Positions 26,853 to 45,354 of a DNA stretch of 64,000 nt are shown piece by piece. The notes below the pieces were generated by a model. The model did not search any database. It was not told the DNA's origin and worked only from the letters and a program-made list of their open reading frames with translations. The translations under genes and the position numbers were made by a program. The stretch's first letter is position 1. Each line of letters begins with the position of its first letter. The stretch comes from Minisyncoccota bacterium (GTDB lineage: Bacteria; Patescibacteriota; Minisyncoccia; Phycocordibacterales; JABAAK01), in contig OY282360.1 of NCBI GenBank assembly GCA_958295675.1, forward strand, positions 358,394 through 422,393, read 5' to 3'.

Positions 26853-26875
26853 CCCCAAACACACAGTGTTTGGGG
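26853..26875. terminator. bidirectional hairpin terminator element, copy 1 of 13 (CCCCAAACAC-loop-GTGTTTGGGG; A-tract 5' and T-tract 3')
   Basis: Perfect 10-bp inverted repeat. Confidence 0.55.
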
Positions 26876-26911
26876 TTTTGTGGCTCCAGAACGGGAGTTG
26901 GGTGCGCTCTT

Positions 26912-27520
26912 TTATCTCAAGGGTTGTACTCTCGCGCGGATTGCTTCCGGCGTGTTCGGGTCTTCAAGAACACTCTTTCGAACTTCGTCGTCGCGACCGT
27001 TGCGTAGATCATTGATGAACTGATCAACATCTTCCGGCGGTATGTTCGGGTTTGCAAGAAGATTCCTTCGAACCTCATCATCGTAGAATAAGGCATTGAC
27101 AAGTAGAGCGAAAGCTTCTACCGGTGCTTCAGGATTTCCGGCAACACTCGCTCGCACATTCTCAAATGAATGATTGGCAAGTTTGATGAGAACCTCTTTC
27201 GGTGTTTCTTGGTTTCCAGCGACTTTTTCCTGCACACAAACATCATCATCCTCAGCGAGTTTGATGAGAACTTCTTTTGATGCTTTCCCATGCTCGGCAA
27301 CTCTCTCTCGCACCCGCTTATCTTCATCCTCAGCAAGTTCAGGGAGGATTTCCGTGAGGATTTCCGTCGGGATATCTTCACGACATGCGAGACCTGCTCG
27401 CACCTTCCAATCCGCATCCTTGGCAAGTTCAAAGAGGATTTCAATTTCCCTCGGGGTCATCGGGGCATCTTCATCCCTAGCAAGTTGTTTGAGTACCTCA
27501 TCTGGTATTTTCAGTACCAT
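26912..27520 (-). CDS. LRV-repeat protein
   Basis: 202 aa. ...DVCVQEKVAGNQETPKEVLIKLA...VRASVAGNPEAP. Confidence 0.65.
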   Translation of the reverse strand: MVLKIPDEVLKQLARDEDAPMTPREIEILFELAKDADWKVRAGLACREDIPTEILTEILPELAEDEDKRVRERVAEHGKASKEVLIKLAEDDDVCVQEKVAGNQETPKEVLIKLANHSFENVRASVAGNPEAPVEAFALLVNALFYDDEVRRNLLANPNIPPEDVDQFINDLRNGRDDEVRKSVLEDPNTPEAIRARVQPLR

Positions 27521-27556
27521 CTCTTTCCTCGGTTTTCAGTTGGTTTAGTCAACTAC

Positions 27557-27577
27557 GATGAGAGAAAAACTCTCATC
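27557..27577 (-). promoter_or_regulatory. conserved 5'-UTR stem-loop of minus-strand LRV genes (gatgagag-aaaaa-ctctcatc)
   Basis: Same element at 28281-28301. Lies between the promoter-like region (tatagtat) and the RBS. Confidence 0.35.
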
Positions 27578-27623
27578 ACCAAAATATAGTATAGCACATT
27601 AAACTATATTTTCAAAAAATAAA

Positions 27624-27646
27624 CCTCAAACACTATGTGTTTGGGG
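27624..27646. terminator. bidirectional hairpin terminator element, copy 2
   Basis: cctcaaacac-tat-gtgtttgggg. Confidence 0.5.
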
Positions 27647-27682
27647 CTTTATTGTTCTGGAACGAGAGTTGCGCACTCTCTT

Positions 27683-28234
27683 TTATCTCAAGGGTTGTAC
27701 TCTCGCGCGGATTGCTTCCGGCGTCTTCGGGTCTTCAAGAACATCCTTTCGCACTTCGTCGGCGTAACCGTTGCGCAGATCATCGACAAACTGATCAACA
27801 ACTTTTGGCGGTATGTTCGGGTTTGCAAGAAGATTCCTTCGAACATCCTCCCAGTAGAGTAAATCCATGGCAAGTAATTTGAAAGCTTCCGCTGGTGCCT
27901 TAGGATTTCCGGCAACACTCGCTCGCACATCGTCAAACAAATCCTGAGCAAGTTTGATGAGATCTTCCGGTGGTGTGTTTTCATTCCCACCGACTCTCGC
28001 TCGCACATTCTCATCCTCATCCGCAGCAAGTCTGGTCAGGGTTTCCGGCGGTGTGTTACCGTTGCCAGCAGCTTCTTTCCGAACACCCTTAAATGCATCA
28101 TTTGCCAGTTCAGCGAGAACTTCCAGCGGGGTATCTTCATCACCTGCGACACCTGCCCGCACAAGCGAATCCGCATCCTTGGCAAGTTGTCTAAGTACTA
28201 CAGGTGATGATTTCTCTGGTATTTCCATTGCCAT
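27683..28234 (-). CDS. LRV-repeat protein
   Basis: 183 aa. C-terminal 60 aa nearly identical to 26912..27520. Confidence 0.65.
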   Translation of the reverse strand: MAMEIPEKSSPVVLRQLAKDADSLVRAGVAGDEDTPLEVLAELANDAFKGVRKEAAGNGNTPPETLTRLAADEDENVRARVGGNENTPPEDLIKLAQDLFDDVRASVAGNPKAPAEAFKLLAMDLLYWEDVRRNLLANPNIPPKVVDQFVDDLRNGYADEVRKDVLEDPKTPEAIRARVQPLR

Positions 28235-28338
28235 CTCTTTCCTCGGTTTTCAGTTGGTTTAGTCAACTACGATGAGAGAAAAACTCTCATCACCAAAATA
28301 TAGTATAGCACATTAAACTATATTTTCAAAAAAATAAA

Positions 28339-28364
28339 CCCCTGAACACATAAGTGTTTTGGGG
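28339..28364. terminator. bidirectional hairpin terminator element, copy 3
   Basis: cccctgaacac-ataa-gtgttttgggg. Confidence 0.5.
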
Positions 28365-28382
28365 TTTAAGTGGTTCACGGAT

Positions 28383-29432
28383 TTACGCAAGCGAATCCGA
28401 TCGTCTGTTCCTGAGATGCAGCAGAGCAATGTGGCGCACAAACTCATTCTCATCTTTGACAAGTTTTTCGAGTACTTCAATCGGTGTGTTCGGATGTTGA
28501 GCGACAAGAGATCTGATCAGCAAATCCGCATTGCCGGCAAACAATGTAAGTTGTTCTGCCGGTGTATTCGGGTTACAAATGGCAGAACGCAATACCAATT
28601 CATCTGTATCTTTGAGAAGGAATGTCAGAGATTCTAGTGGAATGTTCTCGTTTTCAGCAAGCAGTTTTCGCACAAACCAACTTTTATCTACAGAAAGTAA
28701 TGCGAATGCTCTCGTCAAAGTAATCTTACTTCTAGCTATTTCTGCCCGCACATCCTCATCAGGATCTGTAGCAAAACCTGTGAGTGCTTTTATTAACCGT
28801 TTCTTTCTCTTGGCAAGAGTCAACCGCACAGAATCAGCCTTATCCTTGGCGAGTCGCATGAATACTGGGATCGGCAGCTTCTTTCTCTTGGCAAGAGTAA
28901 ACCGTACATGGACATCTTCGTCTTCAGTGAGACGCATGAGTATTTGGATTGGCAGCTTCTTTCTCTTGGCAAGAATACACCGTACATACCAATCCTCATC
29001 CTCAGCAAGTCGCATGAGTACTTGGATCGGCAGCTTCTTTTTCTCGGCAAGAATACGCCGTACATGTACATACCAATCCCCACTCTCAGCAAGTCGCATG
29101 AGTACTTGGATCGGCAGCTTCTTTCTCTCGGCAAGAATACACCGTACATACCAATCCTCATCCTCAGCAAGTCGCATGAGTACTTGGATCGGCAGCTTCT
29201 TTCTCTTGAGAATAGCACGCTGTACATAAAAATTCTCATCCTCAGCAAGTCGCATGAGTACTTCTTCCGGCAGATCCTCTCTCTCGGCAACAATATACCG
29301 TACATGCCAATTCTCATCCTCAGCAAGTCGAGCAAGTGTTTCTTGCGAAGATGTTATTTTGGCAAGAATATATCGCGGAAGAGTAGTAAGTATACCCAGA
29401 ACCCACAAACAGATTTCTTGGAATACATTCAT
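28383..29432 (-). CDS. LRV-repeat protein with N-terminal hydrophobic segment
   Basis: 349 aa. Seven or more LPIQVLMRLAEDEDWYVRCILAERKK repeats (26 aa). Confidence 0.6.
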   Translation of the reverse strand: MNVFQEICLWVLGILTTLPRYILAKITSSQETLARLAEDENWHVRYIVAEREDLPEEVLMRLAEDENFYVQRAILKRKKLPIQVLMRLAEDEDWYVRCILAERKKLPIQVLMRLAESGDWYVHVRRILAEKKKLPIQVLMRLAEDEDWYVRCILAKRKKLPIQILMRLTEDEDVHVRFTLAKRKKLPIPVFMRLAKDKADSVRLTLAKRKKRLIKALTGFATDPDEDVRAEIARSKITLTRAFALLSVDKSWFVRKLLAENENIPLESLTFLLKDTDELVLRSAICNPNTPAEQLTLFAGNADLLIRSLVAQHPNTPIEVLEKLVKDENEFVRHIALLHLRNRRSDSLA

Positions 29433-29641
29433 CCGAGTACCTCCTTCTTCGGTTCCTTTAGGATCAAAGACCCATCCTGATTCATAGTATTATATTTTAA
29501 GTGTATTGTCAATAAATAACTGAATATACTGATAGTATATTTTGTTTACAAATGGCAGAACGCAACACCACTTCAATGATCCAATTTCACTTGCCAATCT
29601 TCATCCTTCACAATGGTGTAATATATTTTCTAAAAAATGAA

Positions 29642-29664
29642 CCCCGAACATATAGTGTTCGGGG
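29642..29664. terminator. bidirectional hairpin terminator element, copy 4
   Basis: ccccgaaca-tata-gtgttcgggg. Confidence 0.5.
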
Positions 29665-29733
29665 TTTAGCGGAAACGCCGGTGAGTTCAGGTACGAATCA
29701 GGGTTTGCCTTTTATCAAGCAAGAACTGCACTT

Positions 29734-32103
29734 TTAGGAAACCGTCTGTCTTTTGAGATTCTCAACAGCCGTCTCTCGCACCCACGGATTCTTATCCTCC
29801 GCAAGCTTGGCAAGAACTTCTTTCGGTGTGTTCCGATGCTTGGCAACAGCCAACCGAATCCGCCAATACGCATCCTCAGCAAGTCGCACGAGTACTTCTA
29901 TGAGAACTTCCCTCGGTGTGTTCCGATGTTTGGTAACACTAAACCGCACCCACGCATTCTCATCCTCGGCAAGCTTGGTGAGAGCTTCTTTCGGTGTGTT
30001 CCGATGTTTGGTAACACTCAACCGCACCCACGCATTCTCATCCTCAGCAAGCTTGGTAAGAGCTTCTTTCGGTGTGTTCGGATGCTCGGCAACTTCCTGC
30101 CGCACCCACGCATTCTCATCCTCGGCAAGCTTGGTGAGAACTTCTTTCGGTGTGTTCCGCTGCTTAGCAACTTCCCGCCGCACCCACGGATTCTTATCCT
30201 CGGCAAGCATTTTAAGCACTTCCAAAGGTGTGTTTGGATTCATGGCGACACCTATTCGCACACCTGCATTCTCATCCTCGGCAAGCTTGGCAAGAATTTC
30301 TTTCGGTGTGTTCCGATGCTTAGCAACTTCCTGCCGCACCAACACATTTTCATCCTCAGCAAGTCGCATGAGTGCTTCTTCCGGTAAGTCCTTCCTCTTG
30401 GCAAGAGTCAACCGCACATCCAGATTTTTATTATCAGTAAGATGAATGAGATCTTCTTTCGGTGTGTCCCGATGTTTAGCAAAAGCCAACCAAACCCGCC
30501 AATTCTTATCCTCAGTAAGTCGCACGAGTGCTTCTTCCGGCAAGTCCTTCCTCTTGATAAGAGTAAGCTGCACATCCAGATTCTTATCCTCGGCAAGCTT
30601 GGTGAGAGCTTCTTTCGGTGTGTTCGGATGCTCGGCAACTTCCCGCCGAACCCGCCAATCCTTATCCTCAGCAAGTCGCACGAGTACTTCTTCCGGCAAG
30701 TCCTTCCTCTTGGGAAGAGTAAGCTGCACATCCAGATTCTTATCCTCGGCAAGTTTGATGAGAGCTTCTTTCGGTGTGTTCCGATGCTTAGCAACTTCCT
30801 GCCGCACCAACGCATTCTCATCCTCGGCAAGCTTGGTGAGAACTTCTTTTGATGCTTTCTTATACTTGGCAACAGCAAACCGAACCCGCCAATTCTTATC
30901 CTCAGCAAGTCGCACGAGTACTTCTTCCGGCAAGTCCTTCCTCTTGGGAAGAGTCAACCGCACATCCAGATTCTTATCCTCGGCAAGTTTGATGAGAGCT
31001 TCTTTCGGTGTGTTCCGATGATTAGCAACTTCCTGCCGCACCAACGCATTCTCATCCTCGGCAAGCTTGGTGAGAGCTTCTTTCGGTGTGTTCCGATGCT
31101 TGGCAACAGCCAACTGAATCCGCCAATCCTTATCCTCAGCAAGTCGCATGAGTGCTTCTTCCGGCAAGTCCTTCCTCTCGGTAAGAGTCAACCGCACATC
31201 CAGATTTTTATTACCAGTAAGATGAACGAGAGATTCTTTCGGTGTGTTCCGATGCTTGGCAACAGCCAACCGAACCCGCCAATTCTTATCCTTAGCAAGT
31301 CGCATGAGTGCTTCTTCCAGTAAGTCCTTCCTCCTGGTAAGAGCAAGCCGCACATCCAGATTTTTATCATCAGTAAAATGAACGAGAACTTTTCTCGGTG
31401 TGTTCCGATGCTTAGCAACTTCCTGCCGAACCCGCCAATCCTTATCCTCAGCAAGTCGCACGAGTACTTCTTCCGGCAAGTCCTTCCTCTTGGCAAGAGT
31501 CAACCGCACATTCTGTTTCTTATCCCCGGCAAGTTTGATGAGAGCTTCTTTCGGTGTGTTCGGATGCTCGGCAACTTCCCGCCGCCGCAGCCAATCCTTA
31601 TCTCCGGCAAGTTGCATGAGTACTTCTCTGAGAATTTCCCTCGGTGTGTTTCGATGTTTGGTAACACTCAACCGCACCCACGAATCCTTATCCCCGGCAA
31701 GTTTGATGAGAACTTCTCTCGGCGTGTTCCGATTCTTGGCAACTTCCCGCCGCACGGACCGATTCTTATCCTCGGCAAGTTTGATGAGAATTTCTCTCGG
31801 TGTGTTCCGATGCTCGGCAACAACCGACCGAACCGACCAATTCTCATCCTCAGCAAGTTTGATGAGAACTTCTTTTGGTGCGTTCCTATGCCTGGCAATT
31901 CTATCTCGCACAAACCAAAACGCATCTTCAGCAAGTCGCACGAGTACTTCTTCCGGCAGATCCTTTCTCTCGGCAAGAGTCAACCGCACCAGAAAATCCT
32001 TATCCCCGGCAAGTCGCATGAGTTTTTCATGAGATGTACAAGGGTCCTTGGCGGCTTTCAATCGTGCCACCACATTTCTCTTTCTCCTGCTCTTTCTACT
32101 CAT
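29734..32103 (-). CDS. giant LRV-repeat protein (~27 repeats)
   Basis: 789 aa of LAEDKNWRVRQEVAKHRNTPKEALIK-type 26-aa units. K/R-rich N-terminus. Confidence 0.65.
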   Translation of the reverse strand: MSRKSRRKRNVVARLKAAKDPCTSHEKLMRLAGDKDFLVRLTLAERKDLPEEVLVRLAEDAFWFVRDRIARHRNAPKEVLIKLAEDENWSVRSVVAEHRNTPREILIKLAEDKNRSVRREVAKNRNTPREVLIKLAGDKDSWVRLSVTKHRNTPREILREVLMQLAGDKDWLRRREVAEHPNTPKEALIKLAGDKKQNVRLTLAKRKDLPEEVLVRLAEDKDWRVRQEVAKHRNTPRKVLVHFTDDKNLDVRLALTRRKDLLEEALMRLAKDKNWRVRLAVAKHRNTPKESLVHLTGNKNLDVRLTLTERKDLPEEALMRLAEDKDWRIQLAVAKHRNTPKEALTKLAEDENALVRQEVANHRNTPKEALIKLAEDKNLDVRLTLPKRKDLPEEVLVRLAEDKNWRVRFAVAKYKKASKEVLTKLAEDENALVRQEVAKHRNTPKEALIKLAEDKNLDVQLTLPKRKDLPEEVLVRLAEDKDWRVRREVAEHPNTPKEALTKLAEDKNLDVQLTLIKRKDLPEEALVRLTEDKNWRVWLAFAKHRDTPKEDLIHLTDNKNLDVRLTLAKRKDLPEEALMRLAEDENVLVRQEVAKHRNTPKEILAKLAEDENAGVRIGVAMNPNTPLEVLKMLAEDKNPWVRREVAKQRNTPKEVLTKLAEDENAWVRQEVAEHPNTPKEALTKLAEDENAWVRLSVTKHRNTPKEALTKLAEDENAWVRFSVTKHRNTPREVLIEVLVRLAEDAYWRIRLAVAKHRNTPKEVLAKLAEDKNPWVRETAVENLKRQTVS

Positions 32104-32246
32104 GTATAATCCTCCCTTGGTTCAGTTTCTTCAGATAAGAGGCATTCTCTCATCACCGAGAATAGTATACTATGTTTTCTAAAAAAATAAACCTTAAAAA
32201 GATTATATAAAAAAATTCCACCAGCATTTCTACTAGTGGAGTGAGT

Positions 32247-32963
32247 TTAGAGCACTTCCGTAAAGAACCGTCTTTCAAACCAAGAAAGGATAGCCTGCAC
32301 CACTTGATCTCGTTCCAATGTACCGTCCAGGAATGCTTTTACAACTTTTATGAAAGCCAGAAACCAGAAATCCATTTCTACATCTTCGTTGGAAAGTAGG
32401 TCAGATGCTCCAATCTCTAGTTCTTGGACACTTGAGTAGACAGCTTGCCACGAATCTTTTGCATCTTCTTCAAATGTTTTAAGCATGGCAAGCCGTGCTT
32501 TGGTAAAATTCACTTCAAACTCAAGAAACATCACTCTAAGAGTAGAGGCAGAAATGCTCCTTTCTTTTTCGTAGTATTTTACAATTTCAAGAAGAAGTAT
32601 TAGTTCCTTCGGTATGTTTGAGTTTCTGTAGAGAAATTCAAGCACAATGGAGGACACCTTTTTCTCGTCTTTGGCAAGTTGCATCAGAATTTCAAAAGAT
32701 GCTTTTGGATTCTTGCCGACATTTCTTCGCACATACCAGTGCGTGTCTCCAGCGAGTTGCGTAAGAGATTTCACCGGCATGCTTGGGTGCTCAGCGGCAG
32801 CTGCCCGCACCCGCCAATCCTTGTCTCTGGCAAGCCGTACGAGAGATGCTACTGGTGTATCCGGATTCCTGGCTGCACGGCGTTGCACACGCCAATCATC
32901 GTCTTTTGCATACGCAATGAGCATTTTTTCCGGAACAGGTTCTCGCCGCGCAAAAACAAGCAT
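32247..32963 (-). CDS. LRV-repeat protein with unique C-terminal domain
   Basis: 238 aa: four LRV units then about 130 aa of non-repeat helical sequence. Confidence 0.6.
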   Translation of the reverse strand: MLVFARREPVPEKMLIAYAKDDDWRVQRRAARNPDTPVASLVRLARDKDWRVRAAAAEHPSMPVKSLTQLAGDTHWYVRRNVGKNPKASFEILMQLAKDEKKVSSIVLEFLYRNSNIPKELILLLEIVKYYEKERSISASTLRVMFLEFEVNFTKARLAMLKTFEEDAKDSWQAVYSSVQELEIGASDLLSNEDVEMDFWFLAFIKVVKAFLDGTLERDQVVQAILSWFERRFFTEVL

Positions 32964-33040
32964 TCAATACCTCCTTTTAGGTTTGTTTAGCATGAGACAA
33001 AATCTCCAAAGTAAGTATACCACTTTAGGATACATTTTTC

Positions 33041-33063
33041 AAAAAACAAACCCCAAACACATA
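33041..33063. terminator. bidirectional hairpin terminator element, copy 5
   Basis: ccccaaacac-ata-gtgtttgagg. Confidence 0.45.
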
Positions 33064-33083
33064 GTGTTTGAGGTTCTGATGAC

Positions 33084-33618
33084 TCAGGAAGAAGTCGATG
33101 ATGTATTCAGTTCTGCTCGTGCAGTAAGTCCTGTCCGCACAACCAAATTCTCATCCTCAGCAAGCAGCGTGGCTACCTCAGTCGGCAAAGTCATTTCTCC
33201 TGGCAAGAGCGGACCGTACCCGCCGATCCTTATCCTTAGCAAGCCGCATGGCTGCCTCAGTCGGCAAGTCATCTCTCCTGGCAAGAGCGGACCGTACCCG
33301 CCGATTCTTATCCTCAGCAAGCCACATGGCTACATTAGCCGGCAGGTCATCTCTCATGGCAAGAGAACGCCGAACAGACGCTTTTGCATCCTCAGCAAGC
33401 CGCATGGCTACTTCAGCAGGCAACTGCTTTCTCTTAGTAAGAAGAAGCCGTACACGCACCCCTCCATTCTCTGCAAGACGAACAAGTCTTTTTGATGAAG
33501 ATGATCTTACGGCAAGAATCTGCCACACAAGATCAAGCATCATTTTTCGGAACACATGCATGACCCAAATACCTCCTTTTAGGTTTGTTTGGAATGAGAG
33601 AAAACCTCTAAATAACAA
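33084..33618 (-). pseudogene. LRV-repeat gene split by a frameshift
   Basis: ORF 33178..33618 (LRV units) and ORF 33084..33320 (continuing ...LPTEVATLLAEDENLVVR) are in different frames. Confidence 0.45.
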
Positions 33619-33648
33619 TATACAATAATATATTCAGGTTTACAAGTT

Positions 33649-34293
33649 TCAAATAAAAGCAAGGATGTGGAGAGTGCCTTTGTGCAGTGCACCATGATAT
33701 ATCGCATCTCGTAAACTCTCTGCCACTTTCCTGCATTGTATTAAAGAATCATCCTTTGTATCTGTGGTGTCTGCAATACGATTATGCACATATTTTTCAA
33801 GATTCTGCAGCATGTGAAGGATTGTGACATGGCGTGTATTTTCTCCTTCTTCCCATATATCATCAATTATCTTCAGTCGATCTTTTGGAGATGCGTTAAT
33901 AAATTCCTTGAAGTCAGAAGATAATTTTGTGATATCCGTTTCTGTTATGTCGGTGATATAGCAGCGGGAAAGCAGGGTGTCCAGTACTTCTGTTCCGACA
34001 GGAAGACAAATAAAAAAATAGACACCTTTTTGAACATCCTCAACAATTTTTAAAAGAGCGTTTTGCGCCTGATGCGTGATGCCCGACGCGCTGATCACGA
34101 CTCTTCTGGTATCGTGACCGACTGATTGAAAGGCATAATCATGAAGCCAACGAATATCCTCAACACCGATTCTTTTTTCAGACCTAATGACATACAAATT
34201 ATCTTTTTCTCGTGATGTAATGTGTTCCGGTAAATCAGCGAAAATCAGGTATGCATGATGTTGCGGCTGATTGATAATCTTTTCAAAACCCAT
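33649..34293 (-). CDS. DNA polymerase III delta-prime-like clamp-loader subunit (degenerate, no P-loop)
   Basis: HAYLIF in place of a Walker A, ...AQNALLKIVE..., SRC motif. Confidence 0.4.
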   Translation of the reverse strand: MGFEKIINQPQHHAYLIFADLPEHITSREKDNLYVIRSEKRIGVEDIRWLHDYAFQSVGHDTRRVVISASGITHQAQNALLKIVEDVQKGVYFFICLPVGTEVLDTLLSRCYITDITETDITKLSSDFKEFINASPKDRLKIIDDIWEEGENTRHVTILHMLQNLEKYVHNRIADTTDTKDDSLIQCRKVAESLRDAIYHGALHKGTLHILAFI

Positions 34294-34313
34294 ACACTAT
34301 CATAATACCTCTT

Positions 34314-36337: not shown

Positions 36338-36345
36338 TATATATT

Positions 36346-36673: not shown

Positions 36674-36745
36674 TCACTATATTCCGCGGTAGCTCAGCGG
36701 TAGAGCAACCGGCTGTTAACCGGTAGGTCGCAGGTTCGAATCCCG
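36674..36745 (+). tRNA. tRNA-Asn (anticodon GUU)
   Basis: Acceptor tccgcgg/ccgcgga, anticodon loop cuGUUaa, T-loop ttcgaat. Confidence 0.8.
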
Positions 36746-36851
36746 CCCGCGGAGCAATAACACAGATTTCACATTTTTTCAAAAAATGGTATATTATTTG
36801 TTAGAAAGGTTTCCTTTTCTGTTCATTTCAAACACACCAAAAGGAGGTTTT

Positions 36852-37139: not shown

Positions 37140-37149
37140 GTCGTCAGAA

Positions 37150-37172
37150 CCCCAAACACACAGTGTTTGGGG
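37150..37172. terminator. bidirectional hairpin terminator element, copy 6
   Basis: ccccaaacac-aca-gtgtttgggg plus T-tract. Confidence 0.55.
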
Positions 37173-37276
37173 TTTATTTTTTAAATAACTTAAAAATTAT
37201 AGTTAAAAGATGTATACTTGGGTGGGAGAAAATCCCTAACCACCCCTAACCGAGTCGAAATGAAGGAGGTCCGATA

Positions 37277-37777
37277 ATGGGCATAGCCCTGCTAGAAAAT
37301 TTGTTGCAGAAGCAAGTTTTCAAAGAAATAGACTCAAACGCAACATCAGTTGAAGTGCTTGCATCATTGGTGTCACTGACATTAGATGAGTTCATTGCGA
37401 CCAGAGACCCGAACACATCGAAAAAGACGCTTGCACGACTTGCAAACAGTGACAATCTGCTCGTTCAGATACTTGTTGCCAAACATCCGAACACATCACC
37501 AGAAACTCTCAAGCAGTTTGTTGAGATGGTGAAACAGGGCAAACAGTTTGGAACTGAAATTCAGTTTCTTCTGCAAATACCTCTCATCCAAAATCAAAAT
37601 ACGCCTTCGGAAGCACTCGCGTTTTTTGCCGAGAGTGAGAACGAGGATGTACGGTGTGCCGTTGCCAGAAATCCGAACACACCGCCGGAAGTTCTCCTCA
37701 AACTTAAGGAGGATAGGAGTTTACTCGTGCAGCAGTATGCCGAAGAGAACCCAAACACACCGTTGACTTCTCCCTGA
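37277..37777 (+). CDS. LRV-repeat protein
   Basis: 166 aa. GAAGGAGG RBS. ...DVRCAVARNPNTPPEVLLKL.... Confidence 0.65.
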   Translation: MGIALLENLLQKQVFKEIDSNATSVEVLASLVSLTLDEFIATRDPNTSKKTLARLANSDNLLVQILVAKHPNTSPETLKQFVEMVKQGKQFGTEIQFLLQIPLIQNQNTPSEALAFFAESENEDVRCAVARNPNTPPEVLLKLKEDRSLLVQQYAEENPNTPLTSP

Positions 37778-37786
37778 GTCGTCAGA

Positions 37787-37809
37787 ACCCCAAACACACA
37801 GTGTTCGGG
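37787..37809. terminator. bidirectional hairpin terminator element, copy 7
   Basis: ccccaaacacacagtgttcgggg. Confidence 0.55.
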
Positions 37810-37827
37810 GTTTATTTTTTAAATAAC

Positions 37828-37855
37828 TTGAAAATTATAGTTTAAATGGTATCTT
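37828..37855 (+). promoter_or_regulatory. cassette promoter TTGAAA / 16 nt / TGgTATCTT (representative; repeated before each family-A gene)
   Basis: Same sequence near 38160, 39090, 40100, 42780 and 43980. Confidence 0.4.
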
Positions 37856-37862
37856 GTTTGTT

Positions 37863-37880
37863 AGAAAGGTTTCCCTTTCT
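37863..37880 (+). promoter_or_regulatory. conserved 5'-UTR stem-loop agaaagg-tttc-cctttct (representative)
   Basis: Present in every family-A leader and in the leader of 36852..37139. Confidence 0.4.
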
Positions 37881-37913
37881 GTTCGTTTCAAACACACCAA
37901 AAGGAGGTGTTTT

Positions 37914-38090
37914 GTGAATCAAAAGATGTACCGGATCCGTGAGAAGATACAGCACACTGATGATGATTTAGATCTCAGCAACCTCACCTCCGCGAAAGGA
38001 CTCACCTTGCCGAGGAAGATTGGTGGTGATCTGGTTCTCAGCGGTCTCAGAATACCACCGGAAGAAGTCTTTAAGTCCTTGCAAGATTGA
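37914..38090 (+). CDS. family-A mini-gene (single 22-aa repeat)
   Basis: GTG after AGGAGG. VNQKMYRIREKIQHTDDDLDLSNLTSAKGLTLPRKIGGDLVLSGLRIPPEEVFKSLQD. Confidence 0.45.
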   Translation: MNQKMYRIREKIQHTDDDLDLSNLTSAKGLTLPRKIGGDLVLSGLRIPPEEVFKSLQD

Positions 38091-38123
38091 TGGACGATAA
38101 GGTTTCTCCCTGAGTCGTCAGAA

Positions 38124-38146
38124 CCCCAAACATATAGTGTTTGGGG
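38124..38146. terminator. bidirectional hairpin terminator element, copy 8
   Basis: ccccaaacatatagtgtttgggg. Confidence 0.5.
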
Positions 38147-38251
38147 TTTGTTTTTAAACAATTTGAAAACATAGTTAAAAAAAATGGTATATTATTTGTT
38201 GGAAAGATTCCCCTTTCTGTTTATTTCAAACACACCAAAAGGAGGTGTTTT

Positions 38252-38968
38252 GTGGATCCACACATGTCTCGGCTCCGTAGGAATATACAGCACGTTGATG
38301 ATAATTTAGATCTCAGCAATCTCACCTCCGCGAAAGGACTCACGCTACCTGAAGAGATTGTTGGTGATCTGAATCTCAGCGGTCTTGTCTCCGCTGAGGG
38401 ACTCACCCTGCCGAGGAAGATTGGTGGTGATCTGCGGCTCAACGGTCTCACCTCCGCTGAAGGACTCACGCTACCTGAAGAGATTGGTGGTCATCTGGAT
38501 CTCAGAGATCTCACCTCCGCGAAAGGACTCACGCTACCTGAAGAGATTGGTGGCAGTCTGGTTCTCAGCGGTCTCACCTCCGCTGAGGGACTCACCCTGC
38601 CGAGGAAAATTGGTGGTGGTCTGTTTCTCAGCGGTCTCAAGTCCGCGAAAGGACTCACGCTACCTGAAGAGATTGGTGGTGATCTGTGGCTCATCGGTCT
38701 CACCTCCGCGAAAGGACTCACGCTACCTGAAGAGATTAGTGGCAGTCTGTGGCTCGACAATCTCACCTCCGCGAAAGGACTCACGCTACCTGAAGAGATT
38801 AGTGGCAGTCTGTGGCTCGACAATCTCACCTCCGCGAAAGGACTCACCCTGCCGAGGAAAATTGGTGGCATTTTGTTTCTCAGCGGACTCACCTCCGCTG
38901 AGGGACTTACACTCCCTGAAGAGATTGGTGGTTATCTGTGGATCGGAGGAAGGAAGGTACAGCATTAG
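38252..38968 (+). CDS. family-A 22-aa tandem-repeat protein (about 10 repeats)
   Basis: GTG after AGGAGG. VDPHMSRLRRNIQHVDDNLDLSNL then LTSAKGLTLPEEIGGxLxLxGL units. Confidence 0.65.
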   Translation: MDPHMSRLRRNIQHVDDNLDLSNLTSAKGLTLPEEIVGDLNLSGLVSAEGLTLPRKIGGDLRLNGLTSAEGLTLPEEIGGHLDLRDLTSAKGLTLPEEIGGSLVLSGLTSAEGLTLPRKIGGGLFLSGLKSAKGLTLPEEIGGDLWLIGLTSAKGLTLPEEISGSLWLDNLTSAKGLTLPEEISGSLWLDNLTSAKGLTLPRKIGGILFLSGLTSAEGLTLPEEIGGYLWIGGRKVQH

Positions 38969-39042
38969 TGTTGCTATAAGCAACCCACCACCGGAAGTCC
39001 TTGCAACATTGATGGACGATAAGGTTTCTCCCTGAATCGTCA

Positions 39043-39065
39043 GAACCCCGAACATTATGTGTTCG
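39043..39065. terminator. bidirectional hairpin terminator element, copy 9
   Basis: ccccgaacattatgtgttcgggg. Confidence 0.5.
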
Positions 39066-39171
39066 GGGTTTATTTTTTAAATAACTTGAAAATTATAGTT
39101 TAAATGGTATCTTGTTTGTTAGAAAGGTTTCCCTTTCTGTTCGTTTCAAACACACCAAAAGGAGGTGTTTT

Positions 39172-40095
39172 GTGAATCAAACTGGCTCCGTGATGCAACA
39201 CACTGATGATTTAGATCTCAGCAACCTCACCTCCGCGAAAGGACTTACACTCCCTGAAGAGATTACTGGCACTCTGGATCTCAGCGGTCTCACCTCCGCT
39301 GAGGAACTCACGCTACCTGAAGAGATTGGTGGTAATCTGGATCTCAGAGGTCTCACCTCCGCTGAGGGACTCACCCTGCCGAGGAAGATTGGTGGTGCTC
39401 TGTTGCTCGACGGTCTCACCTCCGCGAAAGGACTCACGCTACCTGAAGAGATTGGTGGTGATCTGTGGCTCATCGGTCTCACCTCCGCGAAAGGACTCAC
39501 GCTACCTGAAGAGATTGGTGGTCATCTGGTTCTCAACGGTCTCACCTCCGCGAAAGGACTCACCCTGCCGAGGAAAATTGGTGGCATTTTGTTTCTCATC
39601 GGTCTCACTTTCGCTGAAGAACTCACCCTGCCGAGGAAGATTAGCGGTAGTCTGTATCTCAACGGTCTCACCTCCGCTAAGGGACTTACGCTACCTGAAG
39701 AGATTGGTGGTCATCTGATTCTCAGCGGTCTCACTTCCGCGAAAGGACTCACCCTACCGAGGAAGATTGGTGGTGCTCTGGTTCTCAGCGGTCTCACCTC
39801 CACTGAAGGACTCACCCTGCCGAAGAAGATTGGTGGTGATCTGGATCTCAACGGTCTCAAGTCCGCTGAAGAACTCACACTACCTGAAGAGATTGGTGGC
39901 AGTCTGTTTCTCGACGGTCTCAGTTCCGCTGAGGGACTCACGCTACCTGAAGAGATTGGTGGCATTCTGGTTCTCAACGGTCTCACCTCCACGAAAGGAC
40001 TCACCCTGCCGAGGAAGATTGGTGGTCATCTGGATCTCAGAGGTCAGAACCCCGAACATTATGTGTTCGGGGTTTATTTTTTTAAACAACTTTAA
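39172..40095 (+). CDS. family-A 22-aa tandem-repeat protein (about 13 repeats); 3' tail deleted, ORF reads through the terminator hairpin
   Basis: GTG after AGGAGG. The repeat is fused directly to tcagaaccccgaaca...; ends FGVYFFKQL. Confidence 0.55.
   Translation: MNQTGSVMQHTDDLDLSNLTSAKGLTLPEEITGTLDLSGLTSAEELTLPEEIGGNLDLRGLTSAEGLTLPRKIGGALLLDGLTSAKGLTLPEEIGGDLWLIGLTSAKGLTLPEEIGGHLVLNGLTSAKGLTLPRKIGGILFLIGLTFAEELTLPRKISGSLYLNGLTSAKGLTLPEEIGGHLILSGLTSAKGLTLPRKIGGALVLSGLTSTEGLTLPKKIGGDLDLNGLKSAEELTLPEEIGGSLFLDGLSSAEGLTLPEEIGGILVLNGLTSTKGLTLPRKIGGHLDLRGQNPEHYVFGVYFFKQL
40047..40069. terminator. bidirectional hairpin terminator element, copy 10
   Basis: ccccgaacattatgtgttcgggg. Confidence 0.5.
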
Positions 40096-40179
40096 AATTA
40101 TAGTTAAAAATGGTACCTTGTTTGGTAGGAAAGGATTTCCCTTTCTGTTCATTTCAAACACACCAAAAGGAGGTGTTTT

Positions 40180-42579
40180 GTGAATCAAAAGATGTACCGG
40201 ATCCGTGAGAAGATACAGCACACTGATGATGATGATTTAGATCTCAGCAATCTCACCTCCGCGAAAGGACTCACTCTGCCGAGGAAGATTGGTGGCAGTC
40301 TGTTTCTCAGAGGTCTCACCTCCGCGAAAGAACTCACGCTACCTGAAGAGATTGGTGGTGATCTGTGGCTCGACGGTCTCACCTCCGCGAAAGGACTCAC
40401 GCTACCGAAAGAAATCGGCGGTGTTCTGAATCTCAACGGACTCACCTCCGCTGAAGGATTCACGCTACCTGAAGAGATTGGTGGTGGTCTGTGGCTCAAC
40501 GGTTTCGATCCCGCGAAAGGATTCACCCTGCCGAGGAAGATTGGTGGTGATCTGCGGCTCGACGGTCTCACCTCCGCGAAAGGACTCACGCTACCTGAAG
40601 AGATTGGTGGTCTGTTTCTCAGAGGTCTCACCTCCGCAAAAGGACTCACACTACCTGAAGAGATTGGTGGTGATCTGGATCTCACCGGTCTCACTTCCGC
40701 GAAAGGACTCACTCTGCCGAGGAAGATTGGTGGTGATCTGTGGCTCAACAGACTCACTTCCACGAAAGGACTCACGCTACCTGAAGAGATTGGTATTGGT
40801 GGTGATCTGCGGCTCGACGGTCTCACCTCCGCGAAAGGACTCACCCTGCCGAGGAAGATTGGTGGTCTGGATCTCAGCGGTCTCACTTCCGCGAAAGGAC
40901 TCACGCTACCTGAAGAGATTGGTGATGATCTGTTGCTCGACAATCTCACTTCCGCGAAAGGACTCACGCTACCTGAAGAGATTGGTGGCAGTCTGGTTCT
41001 CAGAGGTCTTACCTCCGAGAAAGGACTCACCCTGCCGAGGAAGATTGGTGGCAGTCTGTTTCTCAGAGGTCTCGCCTCCGCGAAAGAACTCACGCTACCT
41101 GAAGAGATTGGTGGTGATCTGGATCTCAGCGGTCTCACTTTCGCGAAAGAACTCACCCTGCCGAGGAAGATTGGTGGTGAACTGGATCTTAGCGGTCTCA
41201 CCTCCGCGAAAGAACTCACGCTACCTGAAGAGATTGATATTGGTGGTCATCTGGATCTCAGAGGTCTCACCTCCGCTGAAGAACTCACCCTGCCGAGGAA
41301 GATTGGTGGTCATTTGCGGCTCGACGATCTCAAGTCCGCTGAGGGACTTACACTCCCTGAAGAGATTGGTGGTGATCTGCGGCTCGACGGTCTCACCTCC
41401 GCAAAAGGACTCACGCTACCTGAAGAGATTGGTGGTCGTCTGGATTTCAGCGGTCTCACTTCCGCTGAAGAACTCACGCTACCTGAAGAGATTGCTGGTG
41501 ATCTGGTTCTCAGAGGTCTCACCTCCGCGAAAGGACTCACGCTACCTGAAGAGATTGGTGGTGATCTGGTTCTCATCGGTCTCACCTCCACGAAAGGACT
41601 CACCTTGCCGAGGAAGATTGGTGGTGATCTGGTTCTCAGAGGTCTCACCTCCGCGAAAGGACTCACGCTACCTGAAGAGATTGGTGGTGATCTGGATATC
41701 AGCGGTCTCACCTCCGCGAAAGGACTCACGCTACCTGAAGAGATTGGTGGTGATCTGGTTCTCATCGGTCTCACCTCCGCTGAAGAACTCACACTACCTG
41801 AAGAGATTGGTGGTAGTCTACATCTCAGCGGTCTTACCTCCGCGAAAGGACTCACCCTGCCGAGGAAGATTGGTGGTGGTCTGTATCTCATCGGTCTCAC
41901 CTCCGCGAAAGGACTCACCCTGCCGAGGAAGATTGGTGATCATCTGTGGCTCGACGGTCTCACCTCCGCGAAAAAACTCACGCTACCTGAAGAGATTGGT
42001 GGTCTGTTTCTCAGCGGTCTCACTTCCGCTAAAGAGATAAGTGGCAGTCTGTATCTCAACGGACTCACTTCAGCGGAAGGACTCATCCTACCGAGGAAGA
42101 TTGGTGGTCATCTGGTTCTCAGCGGTCTCACCTCCGCTGAAGAACTCACACTACCTGAAGAGATTGGTGGTGATTTGGATCTCAGCGGTCTCACCTCCGC
42201 GAAAGGACTCATACTACCGGAAGAGATTGGTGGTGATTTGATTCTCAGCGGTCTCACTTCCGCGAAAGGACTCACGCTACCTAAAGAGATTGGTGGTCAT
42301 CTGGATCTCAGCGGTCTCACCTCCACGAAAGGACTCACCTTAGCGAGGAAGATTGGTGGTGAACTGGATCTTAGCGGTCTCACCTCCGCGAAAGAACTCA
42401 CGCTACCTGAAGAGATTGATATTGGTGGTCATCTGGATCTCAGAGGTCTCACCTCCGCGAAAGGACTCACTCTGCCGAGGAAGATTGGTGGTGATCTGCT
42501 TCTCAGCGGTTATTATCCCATGCTTCTTTCTTTTTCTCTTCATTCTCAGCATCTATTTCCTCCTGCCGAGGAAAATTAG
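40180..42579 (+). CDS. family-A giant 22-aa tandem-repeat protein (about 35 repeats), interrupted near the 3' end
   Basis: 799 aa in frame 1. A non-repeat ~52-nt segment at about 42512-42565 replaces 24 nt of one repeat, causing a +1 shift. The repeat frame resumes and ends at 42706 (...LKSLQD). Confidence 0.55.
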   Translation: MNQKMYRIREKIQHTDDDDLDLSNLTSAKGLTLPRKIGGSLFLRGLTSAKELTLPEEIGGDLWLDGLTSAKGLTLPKEIGGVLNLNGLTSAEGFTLPEEIGGGLWLNGFDPAKGFTLPRKIGGDLRLDGLTSAKGLTLPEEIGGLFLRGLTSAKGLTLPEEIGGDLDLTGLTSAKGLTLPRKIGGDLWLNRLTSTKGLTLPEEIGIGGDLRLDGLTSAKGLTLPRKIGGLDLSGLTSAKGLTLPEEIGDDLLLDNLTSAKGLTLPEEIGGSLVLRGLTSEKGLTLPRKIGGSLFLRGLASAKELTLPEEIGGDLDLSGLTFAKELTLPRKIGGELDLSGLTSAKELTLPEEIDIGGHLDLRGLTSAEELTLPRKIGGHLRLDDLKSAEGLTLPEEIGGDLRLDGLTSAKGLTLPEEIGGRLDFSGLTSAEELTLPEEIAGDLVLRGLTSAKGLTLPEEIGGDLVLIGLTSTKGLTLPRKIGGDLVLRGLTSAKGLTLPEEIGGDLDISGLTSAKGLTLPEEIGGDLVLIGLTSAEELTLPEEIGGSLHLSGLTSAKGLTLPRKIGGGLYLIGLTSAKGLTLPRKIGDHLWLDGLTSAKKLTLPEEIGGLFLSGLTSAKEISGSLYLNGLTSAEGLILPRKIGGHLVLSGLTSAEELTLPEEIGGDLDLSGLTSAKGLILPEEIGGDLILSGLTSAKGLTLPKEIGGHLDLSGLTSTKGLTLARKIGGELDLSGLTSAKELTLPEEIDIGGHLDLRGLTSAKGLTLPRKIGGDLLLSGYYPMLLSFSLHSQHLFPPAEEN

Positions 42580-42739
42580 TGGTAGTCTGTTTCTCAGCGG
42601 TCTCACTTCCGCGAAAGGACTCACCCTACCTGAAGAGATTGGTGGTGATTTGGTTCTCAGCGGTCTCACCATACCACCGGAAATCCTTAAGTCCTTGCAA
42701 GATTGATGGACGATAAGGTTTCTCCCTGAGTCGTCAGAA

Positions 42740-42762
42740 CTCCGAACACATAGTGTTCGGGG
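42740..42762. terminator. bidirectional hairpin terminator element, copy 11
   Basis: ctccgaacacatagtgttcgggg. Confidence 0.5.
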
Positions 42763-42863
42763 TTTATTTTTAAATAACTTGAAAATATAGTTAAAAAATA
42801 GTACATTGTTTGTTAGAAGGGTTTCCCTTTTTGTTCACTTCAAACACACCAAAAGGAGATTTT

Positions 42864-43904
42864 ATGAATGTGGGGACACCACCAACAAAACTTACAGCGG
42901 AAGTGATTGCAGGGTGGGGGGCACCAGACAACTGGATGCTCCGGCTTTGGAAGAAGTTGAAGCAGCGTGCTGTGATCTTTTGTCTCATCACACTCCGTAG
43001 GGAGATGCAGTACATTGATGGCGATATGGATCTCAGCGGTCTCACCTCCGCTGAGGGACTCACCCTGCCGAGGAAGATTGGTGGTTGTCTGGATCTCAGC
43101 GGTCTCACCTCCGCTGAGGGACTCACCCTGCCGGAGGAAATCGGTGATTGGCTGGATCTCAGAGGTCTCACCTCCGCTGAGGGACTCACCCTGCCGGAGG
43201 AAATCGGTAATTGGCTGGATCTCAGCGGTCTCACCTCCGCTGAGGGACTCACGCTACCGAAAGAGATTACTGGCAATCTGTTTCTCAGCGGTCTCACCTC
43301 CGCGAAAGGACTCACCCTGCCGAGGAAGATTGGTGGCGGTCTGGATCTCAGCGGTCTCACCTCCGCTGAGGGACTCACCCTGCCGAGGAAAATTGGTGGT
43401 GGTCTGTTTCTCAGCGGTCTCACCTCCGCGAAAGGACTCACCCTGCCGAGGAAGATTGGTGGTTTTCTGTGGTTCAGCGGTCTCACCTCCGCTGAGGGAA
43501 TCACCTGGCCGGAAGAGATTGGTGGTGATCTGGATCTCAGCGGTCTCACTTCCGCGAAAGGACTCACGCTACCGAAAGAGATTACTGGCAATCTGTTTCT
43601 CAGCGGTCTCACTTCCGCGAAAGGACTCACGCTACCGAAAGAGATTACTGGCAATCTGTTTCTCAGCGGTCTCACTTCCGCGAAAGGACTCACGCTACCT
43701 GAAGAGGTTGGTGGTGATCTGGATCTCAGAGGTCTCACTTCCGCTGAAGAACTCACACTACCTGAAGAGATTGGTGGCGATCTGGTTCTCAACGGTCTCA
43801 CCTCCGCGAAAGGACTTACGCTACCGAGGAAGATTGGTGGTGATCTGGTTCTCAGCGGTCTCAGAATACCACCGGAAGAAGTCTTTAAGTCCTTGCAAGA
43901 TTGA
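42864..43904 (+). CDS. family-A 22-aa tandem-repeat protein with LRV-type N-terminal module (MNVGTPP...MLRLWKKLKQRAV...ITLRR)
   Basis: ATG after AAAGGAG. N-terminal 55 aa are homologous to 36852..37139, then about 13 of the 22-aa repeats. Confidence 0.65.
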   Translation: MNVGTPPTKLTAEVIAGWGAPDNWMLRLWKKLKQRAVIFCLITLRREMQYIDGDMDLSGLTSAEGLTLPRKIGGCLDLSGLTSAEGLTLPEEIGDWLDLRGLTSAEGLTLPEEIGNWLDLSGLTSAEGLTLPKEITGNLFLSGLTSAKGLTLPRKIGGGLDLSGLTSAEGLTLPRKIGGGLFLSGLTSAKGLTLPRKIGGFLWFSGLTSAEGITWPEEIGGDLDLSGLTSAKGLTLPKEITGNLFLSGLTSAKGLTLPKEITGNLFLSGLTSAKGLTLPEEVGGDLDLRGLTSAEELTLPEEIGGDLVLNGLTSAKGLTLPRKIGGDLVLSGLRIPPEEVFKSLQD

Positions 43905-43937
43905 TGGACGATAAGGTTTCTCCCTGAGTCGTCAGAA

Positions 43938-43960
43938 CCCCAAACATATAGTGTTTGGGG
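43938..43960. terminator. bidirectional hairpin terminator element, copy 12
   Basis: ccccaaacatatagtgtttgggg. Confidence 0.5.
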
Positions 43961-44065
43961 TTTGTTTTTAAACAATTTGAAAACATAGTTAAAAAAAATG
44001 GTATATTATTTGTTGGAAAGATTCCCCTTTCTGTTTATTTCAAACACACCAAAAGGAGGTGTTTT

Positions 44066-45265
44066 GTGGATCCACACATGTCTCGGCTCCGTAGGAATAT
44101 ACAGCACGTTGATGATAATTTAGATCTCAGCAATCTCACCTCCGCGAAAGGACTCACGCTACCTGAAGAGATTGTTGGTGATCTGAATCTCAGCGGTCTT
44201 GTCTCCGCTGAGGGACTCACCCTGCCGAGGAAGATTGGTGGTGATCTGCGGCTCAACGGTCTCACCTCCGCTGAAGGACTCACGCTACCTGAAGAGATTG
44301 GCGGTGATCTGAATCTCATCGGTCTCACCTCCGCTGAAGGACTTACGCTACCTGAAGAGATTGGTGGTGGTCTGAATTTCAGCAATCTCACCTCCGCTGA
44401 GGGACTCACCCTGCCAAGGAAGATTGGTAGTCATCTGCGGCTCGACGATCTCAAGTCCGCTGAGGGACTTACACTCCCTGAAGAGATTGGTAGTGATCTG
44501 CTTCTCAGCAGACTCACCTCCGCGAAAGGACTCACCCTGCCGAGGAAGATTGGCCGTAATCTGTGGCTCAACGGTCTCACTTCCGCTGAGGGACTCACGC
44601 TACCTGAAGAGATTGGTGGTCATCTGGTTCTGAGCGGTCTCACTTCCGCGAAAGAACTCATCCTGCCGAGGAAGATTGGTGGTAAACTGGATCTCAGCGG
44701 TCTCACTTCCGCTGAAGAACTCACGCTACCTGAAGAGATTGGTGGTGATCTGTTGCTCAACGGTCTCACCTCCGCTGAGGGACTCACCCTGCCAAGGAAG
44801 ATTGGTGGTTCTCTGTGGCTCAACGGTCTTACCTCTGCGAAAGAACTCACCCTGCCGAGGAAGATTGGTGGTGGTCTGTATCTCCGCGATCTCACCTCTA
44901 CTGAAGGACTCACGCTACCTGAAGAGATTGGTAGCAGTTTGTTTCTCAGCGGTCTCACCTCCGCTGAAGAACTCACGCTACCTGAAGAGATTGGTGGTGC
45001 TCTGGATCTCAGCGGTCTCACCTCCGCGAAAGGACTCACCCTGCCGAGGAAGATTGGTGGTGATCTGCGGCTCAGCGGACTCACCTCCGCGAAAGGACTC
45101 ACGCTACCTGAAGAGATTGGCCGTGATCTGTGGCTCAGAGGTCTCACCTCCACTGAAGGACTCACGCTACCTGAAGAGATTGGCCGTAATCTGGTTCTCA
45201 GCAGTTTCACCTCCGCGAAAGGACTCACCCTGCCGAGGAAGAGAGGAAGATTGGTGGTTTTCTGA
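44066..45265 (+). CDS. family-A 22-aa tandem-repeat protein (about 17 repeats)
   Basis: GTG after AGGAGG. The first ~350 nt (from the terminator through the start) are near-identical to the 38126-38420 region. Confidence 0.65.
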   Translation: MDPHMSRLRRNIQHVDDNLDLSNLTSAKGLTLPEEIVGDLNLSGLVSAEGLTLPRKIGGDLRLNGLTSAEGLTLPEEIGGDLNLIGLTSAEGLTLPEEIGGGLNFSNLTSAEGLTLPRKIGSHLRLDDLKSAEGLTLPEEIGSDLLLSRLTSAKGLTLPRKIGRNLWLNGLTSAEGLTLPEEIGGHLVLSGLTSAKELILPRKIGGKLDLSGLTSAEELTLPEEIGGDLLLNGLTSAEGLTLPRKIGGSLWLNGLTSAKELTLPRKIGGGLYLRDLTSTEGLTLPEEIGSSLFLSGLTSAEELTLPEEIGGALDLSGLTSAKGLTLPRKIGGDLRLSGLTSAKGLTLPEEIGRDLWLRGLTSTEGLTLPEEIGRNLVLSSFTSAKGLTLPRKRGRLVVF

Positions 45266-45331
45266 TGCTCAAAAATCGCATCTTCCGCGTAAGATTGACG
45301 GACGATAAGGTTTCTTCCTGAGTCGTCAGAA

Positions 45332-45354
45332 CCCCGAACACACAGTGTTCGGGG
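45332..45354. terminator. bidirectional hairpin terminator element, copy 13
   Basis: ccccgaacacacagtgttcgggg. Serves the convergent genes 44066..45265 and 45408..46244. Confidence 0.5.

Follow-up and report, generated by a model that had tools for sequence, protein, structure and literature searches.

Thirteen near-identical hairpins that punctuate two arrays of repeat-protein genes in a Minisyncoccota bacterium are probably ordinary one-way intrinsic terminators, copied along with the duplicating LRV and LRR-like genes of this candidate phyla radiation (CPR) genome and neither bidirectional nor mobile. They lie in a stretch of 64,000 nucleotides (contig OY282360.1 of GenBank assembly GCA_958295675.1, positions 358,394 to 422,393; hereafter the window), whose own coordinates are used throughout. 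The left array (26843-33660, - strand) comprises six LRV genes, M0-M5, between holB (33649-34293) and frr (26240-26803). The right array (36768-45364, + strand) comprises G1-G8, namely two LRV genes and six genes of 21-residue repeats, and starts 13 nt past tRNA-Asn (36683-36755), next to grx.

Copy number, structure, and orientation of the hairpins

The hairpin family has the consensus CCCC[A/G]AACA[C/T]-NNN-GTGTT[T/C]GGGG, with 13 copies at 26853-45354; a preliminary description of this DNA had given the same count, which was borne out, and its first and last coordinates were exact. A scan of the window with CCCCAAACAC-NNN-GTGTTTGGGG, allowing up to three mismatches, gave 12 matches, at 26853, 27624, 29642, 33051, 37150, 37788, 38124, 39046, 40050, 42740, 43938, and 45332, compared with none in 100 dinucleotide-preserving shuffles. 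The thirteenth copy, found by reading the - strand, is an indel variant at 28339-28364 with the sequence CCCCAAAACAC-TTAT-GTGTTCAGGGG. Raising the tolerance to five substitutions yielded no further copy in the window, and the 45.5 kb outside the arrays contained none.

The palindrome is near-perfect and 23-27 nt long. Its sense-strand core has a folding energy of -8.1 to -16.7 kcal/mol in all 13 copies, giving a stable stem-loop, and the RNA of the copy at 37150, folded in context, reached -21.8 kcal/mol with a z-score of -4.5 relative to shuffles. The perfect 10-bp inverted repeat previously ascribed to the whole family is true of the copies at 26853, 37150, and 45332, which have a Watson-Crick 10-mer stem, but not of the other 10: on the gene strand, six of these carry one G-U wobble, three carry one mismatch, and one has indels.

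All 13 hairpins are co-oriented with the gene upstream of them, five behind - strand genes (33618 down to 26853) and eight behind + strand genes (36852 to 45354). Their layout on the gene strand is the same throughout, consisting of the 3' end of the gene, two to four A residues, the stem-loop, and then TTTATTTTTT or a close variant, so that 8-9 of the 10 nt directly past the stem are T in every copy. Twelve hairpins are located 10-160 nt downstream of the stop codon, while the one at 40050 falls inside an open reading frame (ORF), in its final 46 nt. The stem-loop, the U-rich tail, and the position past the stop codon together agree with the anatomy predicted for a terminator, as had been proposed. 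An independent consensus terminator scan called 12 of the 13 copies, 11 of them as a full stem-loop on the gene strand only; at 27624, the gene strand yielded no more than a 7-pair core, and the complete stem of 10 pairs was called on the antisense strand. Neither 37788 nor 28339 was called. Because the sense tail is T-rich in all 13 copies and only two to four A residues stand on the opposite side, the hairpins are read as unidirectional intrinsic terminators. When an array gene is transcribed, the RNA would form a 10-12-bp, G/C-anchored stem with a loop of 3-5 nt, followed by UUUAUUUUUU, at which RNA polymerase would release the transcript; each hairpin would serve the gene immediately upstream.

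Replacement, recurrence, and covariation of the probable terminators

The hairpin stands behind 13 of the 14 array genes, and thus the earlier claim that it separates every LRV and family-A gene (the latter being the six 21-residue-repeat genes, G3-G8) fails only for M1 (32247-32963, - strand). This gene is followed by a different, non-homologous terminator hairpin at 32217-32240 (- strand), composed of TCCACTAGTAGAAATGCTGGTGGA and then ATTTTTTT. Approximately 20 nt downstream of it, at 32181-32195 (- strand; AAGGTTTATTTTTTT), lies a vestige of the canonical module that has lost its hairpin; the usual promoter, that of M2, and untranslated region (UTR) follow. Since the M1 position retains a terminator though its sequence has changed, this functional replacement suggests that termination itself appears to be the selected function.

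Strong terminators are rare elsewhere in the window, most housekeeping genes having none. A second hairpin family, AGACCCGAATACGCT-TAC-AGCGTGTTCGGGTCT followed by TTCTTTTT, has three copies on the + strand (10897-10929, 11967-11999, and 12602-12634) behind a paralogue pair (10001-10873 and 11063-11938) and a third, truncated copy. Its core, CCCGAAyAC/GTGTTCGGG, is also that of the 13-copy hairpin, by common origin or by coincidence. As this three-copy terminator belongs to another paralogue family, terminators appear to travel with duplicated genes in this genome.

In the alignment of the 12-pair stem, 96.5% of the cells pair. A single pair truly covaries, being A-U in five rows, G-C in five rows, and in other states in two rows; the copies at 37788 and 28339 are exceptions, their 5' arm being in the A state and their 3' arm in the C state. 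The compensatory changes reported in the preliminary description, therefore, come down to one A-U/G-C double change, as the second apparent double change is the product of the misaligned indel copy. The further claim that the stem is under selection retains this one pair, but template switching or gene conversion could also produce it, and among closely related, recombining copies it argues only weakly for selection. Replication template switching inside a palindrome can make such paired changes without selection (PMC8794818).

Several observations weigh against the terminator interpretation. Termination is itself predicted from the sequence, and the distribution of the hairpin was read in the 64-kb window and in one 11.5-kb stretch of the same species. 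Only the hairpin and T tract (approximately 35 nt) are invariant in all copies when the 13 units are aligned, which is more sequence conservation than a purely structural constraint predicts, and four copies have flanks that defy alignment. The stems of two copies contain a mismatched A.C pair, and the copy at 40050 lies within an ORF. The asymmetry between G-U wobbles and A-C mismatches also reveals no clear preference for the sense strand, with four independent cases of a sense wobble against three of a sense mismatch.

The intergenic module around the hairpin

The hairpin is embedded in an intergenic module. This runs from a conserved 3' coding tail through the hairpin and its T tract to a predicted sigma-70-type promoter (TTGAAA with an extended -10), and on to a stem-loop in the 5' UTR and a strong Shine-Dalgarno (SD) sequence. 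In the + arm, the 13-unit alignment revealed conservation beyond the hairpin over approximately 45 nt upstream and 110 nt downstream. The 3' tail of this arm ends in PPEVLARLTDDKVSP and a stop codon, followed by gtcgtcagaa ahead of the hairpin. A promoter-like site, TTGAAA with a 16-19-nt spacer and (TGn)TATnTT, starts 16-18 nt past the stem, and the UTR opens with the stem-loop AGAAAGG-TTTC-CCTTTCT, which leads to CAAACACACCAAAAGGAGGTG and a start codon, GTG or ATG. The -35 element of the - arm begins 8-9 nt past the stem and overlaps the end of the T tract, and the UTR has a different 5' stem-loop, GATGAGAG-TTTT-CTCTCATC. Across both arms, a promoter-like site was found downstream of 10 of the 13 hairpins at a distance of 8-18 nt, with an extended -10 in most. 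The promoter and 5'-UTR half of the module is exemplified by 37828-37913 (+ strand), which has TTGAAA-16-(TG)nTATCTT, the stem-loop AGAAAGG-TTTC-CCTTTCT, the SD AAGGAGGTG, and a GTG start, and the same module lies ahead of G1, G3, G4, G5, G6, G7, and G8. With promoters and starts assigned from consensus and spacing, each array gene looks like an autonomous unit bracketed by its own promoter and terminator.

The A-run in the promoter spacer varies (A3, A5, A6, and A8), giving spacers of 16, 17, or 19 nt at 36774-36789, 37834-37849, 38169-38187, 40097-40113, 42785-42801, and 43983-44001; both A8 spacers fall within a 478-nt exact duplicate described below. Slipped-strand events at such a variable run might switch expression on and off. 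Stem-loops are also predicted at the 5' ends of the mRNAs, at 37862-37881, 39120-39139, and 40128-40146 on the + strand and at 27556-27576 and 28270-28290 on the - strand. They differ between the arrays (GAAAGG/CCTTTC versus GATGAGAG/CTCTCATC), and their z-scores are modest, from 0.2 to -2.6; they could act as 5' stabilizers of the cassette mRNAs.

The individual copies

In the left array, read on the - strand, the hairpin at 26843-26877 (core 26853-26875 plus the T tract) follows the LRV gene M5 (26912-27520) and precedes frr; its sense folding energy is -14.9 kcal/mol, and its tail is TTGATTTTTT. The copy at 27614-27648, after the LRV gene M4 (27683-28234), has one C-A mismatch on the sense strand and the tail TTTATTTTTT, and a -35 TTGAAA begins 8 nt past its stem. 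The indel variant spans 28329-28366 after the LRV gene M3 (28383-29432), with its 5' arm in the A state and its 3' arm in the C state, a folding energy of -12.3 kcal/mol, and again the tail TTTATTTTTT. The copy at 29632-29666 is in the G-C state and follows the 789-aa LRV gene M2 (29734-32103), with flanks unrelated to those of the other copies, and the copy at 33041-33075, with a U-G wobble on the sense strand, follows the frameshifted LRV gene M0 (33084-33618).

In the right array, on the + strand, the copy at 37148-37182 lies 10 nt past the stop of the LRV gene G1 (36852-37139), and the copy at 37786-37820, which has an A.C hybrid stem, lies 10 nt past the stop of the LRV gene G2 (37277-37777). 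G3 (37914-38090) is followed by the copy at 38122-38156 and G4 (38252-38968) by the copy at 39044-39078, the latter in the G-C state. The copy at 40048-40082, also in the G-C state, is read through by the ORF of G5 (39172-40095), with a stop-to-hairpin gap of -46. The copy at 42738-42772 combines the G-C state with a U-G wobble and lies 160 nt past the stop of G6 (40180-42579). The copy at 43936-43970 follows G7 (42864-43904), and the last, at 45330-45364 and in the G-C state, follows G8 (44066-45265); no other copy lies between convergent genes, the neighbor of this one being at 45408-46244 on the - strand, and its antisense tail is TTCTGACGAC.

Recombination and origin of the copies

Exact-repeat mapping returned three longest tracts that include an intergenic module. 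The largest, 478 nt (38010-38487 = 43824-44301), has a hairpin (38124 and 43938) in mid-tract and spans a gene end, the hairpin, the promoter with its UTR, and approximately 235 nt at the start of the next gene; it indicates a very recent duplication or gene conversion. The second, 123 nt (37801-37923 = 39059-39181), begins exactly at the 3' arm of the hairpin at 37788, and the third, 103 nt (27517-27619 = 28231-28333), ends at the T tract by the hairpins at 27624 and 28339. In addition, LRV-type 3' tails are found on LRR-type genes, some of them out of frame, and the ORF of G5 has been joined such that the hairpin is read through. To judge from their sequences, the modules show frequent recombination with one another. 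The preliminary description had the hairpin serve as homology for cassette recombination; this is plausible for the whole module of approximately 180 nt and is hinted at by stretches of identity that have a boundary at the hairpin. Under the terminator interpretation, the module would have been duplicated together with the genes to give 13 copies, and unequal crossing-over or gene conversion would have kept the modules similar while the two arrays, specific to this lineage, grew to the left and right of the grx-mreB-holB core.

An alternative that we regard as unlikely gives recombination the primary role: the palindrome would be a sequence-specific junction, a crossover or template-switch point joining 3' gene modules to 5' promoter modules, with termination as a second function. 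The boundaries of the 123-nt and 103-nt tracts fit this proposal, as do the 5' arm of the hairpin at 37788, which matches that at 37150, the two hybrid-arm copies (5' A state, 3' C state), the out-of-frame LRV tails before the hairpin in LRR genes, and a hairpin that is better conserved than its flanks. However, the largest exact repeat has the hairpin in its middle, each hybrid stem is explicable by a single point mutation, no recombinase gene lies nearby, the cassettes differ from those of integrons in carrying promoters of their own and in lying in two orientations, and three tracts are too few for statistics. It is likewise doubtful, though conceivable, that a palindrome acting as a preferred junction, through template switching or some recombinase, reshuffles an independently expressed repertoire of LRV/LRR-like solenoids in a CPR episymbiont, to which the poly-A spacers might add on/off switching.

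The integron attC site was considered and rejected as a candidate, there being no integrase in the window, cassettes with their own promoters, and two array orientations. The attC architecture (an imperfect palindrome of 57-141 nt with R''/L''-L'/R' boxes and extrahelical bases) is not that of a near-perfect palindrome of 23-27 nt, and CCCCAAAC and GTTTGGGG, compared by eye, do not match the attC motifs RYYYAAC/GTTRRRY.

A resemblance to coding sequence was also noted. The last LRV motif of G2, NPNT (37748-37759, coded by AACCCAAACACA), matches the 5' arm of the hairpin 29 nt downstream (AACCCCAAACACA, 37786-37798) at 12 of 13 positions. The variable A/G position of the arm aligns with the CCA/CCG variation of the proline codon, and two matches were obtained versus 0.14 in shuffles. 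These matches lend weak support to a terminator that may have arisen by inverted copying of the NPNT repeat-coding motif.

Direction of the predicted termination

The preliminary description regarded the hairpin as bidirectional, with an A tract on one side and a T tract on the other. No copy has both; each has a single long tract, always downstream of its own gene, and the apparent 'aa...ttt' consensus arose because copies of the - and + strands were read together on one strand. A bidirectional terminator, in which one palindrome halts RNA polymerase from either side and the A tract supplies the U tract of the opposite strand, is very unlikely here. Being a DNA palindrome, the hairpin folds nearly as well in the antisense RNA (-8 to -16.7 kcal/mol), an antisense TTTT is present at 26853 and CTTTATTGTT at 27624, and the copy at 45332 sits between convergent genes. 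Nevertheless, the antisense tails, typically TTCTGACGAC, have 3-4 T per 10 nt in 10 copies and 5-7 T in three, with a run of four only at 26853. There is no mirrored A tract, only the two to four A residues upstream of the stem, and of the 12 copies that the terminator scan detected, 11 have the full stem called on the gene strand. The proposed association with convergent or tandem gene ends was seen in the window for tandem ends, 12 of the 13 copies lying between co-directional genes, where reverse termination would have nothing to stop, and for convergent ends only at 45332.

Distribution outside the arrays and mobility

The hairpin had also been called a REP-like unit (REP, repetitive extragenic palindrome). 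Spread of the hairpin by itself, through a REP-associated tyrosine transposase (RAYT) or another transposase in the manner of a REP or a miniature inverted-repeat transposable element (MITE), with termination acquired secondarily, is highly improbable. It would account for a segment of approximately 35 nt, the hairpin and T tract, as the sole part common to all 13 copies among flanks of unrelated classes, and for a second hairpin family in the window with the same core, CCCGAAyAC/GTGTTCGGG. Against this, the copies are single and gene-co-oriented, never in inverted pairs, and confined to the arrays, being absent both from the remaining 45.5 kb of the window and from 11.5 kb of a different genome region in the same species (L096, from another sample). 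Neither target-site duplications nor terminal repeats beyond the stem were seen, and a Pfam scan found no transposase, RAYT, or integrase among the window ORFs.

Database scans with a degenerate motif gave 47 stretches in 185,579 species genomes, 43 in the JGI metagenomes, and none in IMG/VR, all of them single-copy terminators from unrelated taxa that happen to have the same stem, with different flanks and loops, and none from the source genome; the match in Parcubacteria (L020) follows an unrelated gene. No homologous hairpin was found at the family-A loci of two relatives (L091 and L092) or at the mreB loci of two others (L093 and L095). In Candidatus Campbellbacteria CP064977.1 (L092 9221-20113), 11 family-A genes stand in a row with spacers of exactly 3 nt and no hairpins, and the family-A locus of another relative has an unrelated hairpin, AATCCTC...GAGGATT. 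The operon-like packing in Campbellbacteria contrasts with the one-promoter-one-terminator-per-gene layout of the window.

That the copies are an assembly artefact of a metagenome-derived genome, or chance, is scarcely credible, for although the region is highly repetitive (63-nt tandem units) and several genes look frameshifted, the copies differ at several positions and have distinct flanks, no chance match is expected, and MreB and one other window protein are 100% identical to proteins recorded on a 724,510-bp contig, a length in keeping with a CPR genome.

Genes of the arrays and their genome setting

Pfam LRV (PF01816) matches, with HEAT-type overlaps, were obtained for G1, G2, and M0-M5. 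The family-A genes G3-G8 consist of 63-nt (21-residue) tandem repeats with the consensus LxLxxLTSAEGLxLPxxIGGx; searches of Pfam and NCBIfam assigned them to no genuine family, and a PDB sequence search likewise gave no real family. AlphaFold modelled G4 with confidence as a solenoid (pLDDT 93), and the nearest solved folds, with weak scores, are the short bacterial LRR proteins YopM and IpaH. Homologues of G4, where named, come from Candidatus Campbellbacteria and Uhrbacteria.

The two arrays diverge from a grx-mreB-holB core in a 724-kb CPR genome. In the nearest readable relative (68% MreB identity; L093 10001-13000), holB directly adjoins frr with no array between them, and the genes run without interruption from grx through a 91-aa gene, mreB, a 210-aa gene, holB, and frr to mreB2, and further on to PBP, greA, mraZ, and rsmH. 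By comparison with this gene order, both arrays of the window are lineage-specific insertions that diverge from a conserved core. An Rfam search of the window found four tRNAs and nothing else.

Several array genes look damaged or chimeric. A frameshift is needed in M0 (33084-33618, - strand), an LRV tail that is out of frame closes both G3 and G7, the G5 ORF continues through its terminator, and 160 nt of repeat remnant (42580-42739) remain after G6. These could reflect pseudogenization, recombination scars, or assembly errors.

A third paralogue family, with the N-terminus MADICEELRKQL... and C-terminal repeats of LRR-like type, is located at 51328-55666 (- strand) and 59145-62564 (+ strand), and also at 63620-63928. 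Its two arrays diverge from a core at 55.7-59.1 kb and have conserved intergenic promoters but no hairpin terminators; the same 724-kb contig carries additional members elsewhere. The cumulative GC skew has its minimum near 56 kb, which might mark a replication origin.

Significance and comparison with known systems

As a terminator, the hairpin is textbook biology, and its value lies in annotation: it marks 14 LRV/LRR-like genes in a CPR genome as what would be separate, insulated transcription units. It is also a clean example of an entire putative expression module (terminator, promoter, 5' UTR, and SD) that appears to have been copied with a fast-expanding gene family. Of more interest than the hairpin is its context, namely arrays inserted into a conserved cell-shape and division backbone, with signs of recombination in chimeric 3' tails, the 478-nt exact duplicate, and frameshifted members. 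The arrays are candidate host-interaction repertoires of organisms thought to be host-attached.

Integron attC sites resemble the present hairpin in being palindromes at the 3' end of each array unit, and there are hints of junctions at the hairpin. The window differs in having no IntI, attI, or Pc, in the cassettes' own promoters, in a short stem that lacks R''/L''-L'/R' boxes, and in opposite array orientations. REPs, bacterial interspersed mosaic elements (BIMEs), and REP doublets forming hairpins (REPINs) are extragenic palindromes mobilized by RAYTs, and they can also terminate transcription or stabilize mRNAs. They share with the present family a short extragenic palindrome at gene 3' ends in several copies, whereas the copies in the window are few, belong to one gene-family cluster, are not dispersed across it, and are strictly gene-co-oriented, with no inverted pairs and no RAYT in the window. 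Bidirectional intrinsic terminators between convergent genes have been discussed (bioRxiv 10.1101/2022.10.23.513370), and here too the stem can be folded from either strand, but a mirrored A tract is lacking and one of the 13 copies lies between convergent genes.

The arrays as a whole call for a different comparison. The vlp genes of Mycoplasma hyorhinis are a variable multigene family with conserved 5' expression modules, tandem coding repeats, and a poly(A) promoter spacer. The present arrays are similar in their tandem paralogues, conserved promoter and 5' UTR, in-frame 63-nt repeats, and A3-A8 spacer run; they differ in that their host is a CPR bacterium and that the N-termini that were read showed neither a signal peptide nor a lipobox, no predictor having been run.

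The closest match is the canonical Rho-independent terminator, which likewise has a G/C-rich stem of 10-12 bp, a loop of 3-5 nt, and a U-rich tail of 8-10 nt and lies downstream of the stop codon, co-oriented with its gene. The hairpins of the two arrays are the same in kind; what is unusual is the presence of 13 near-identical copies in 18.5 kb, each of which abuts the next predicted promoter, with the T tract overlapping the -35 element or lying 8-18 nt from it.

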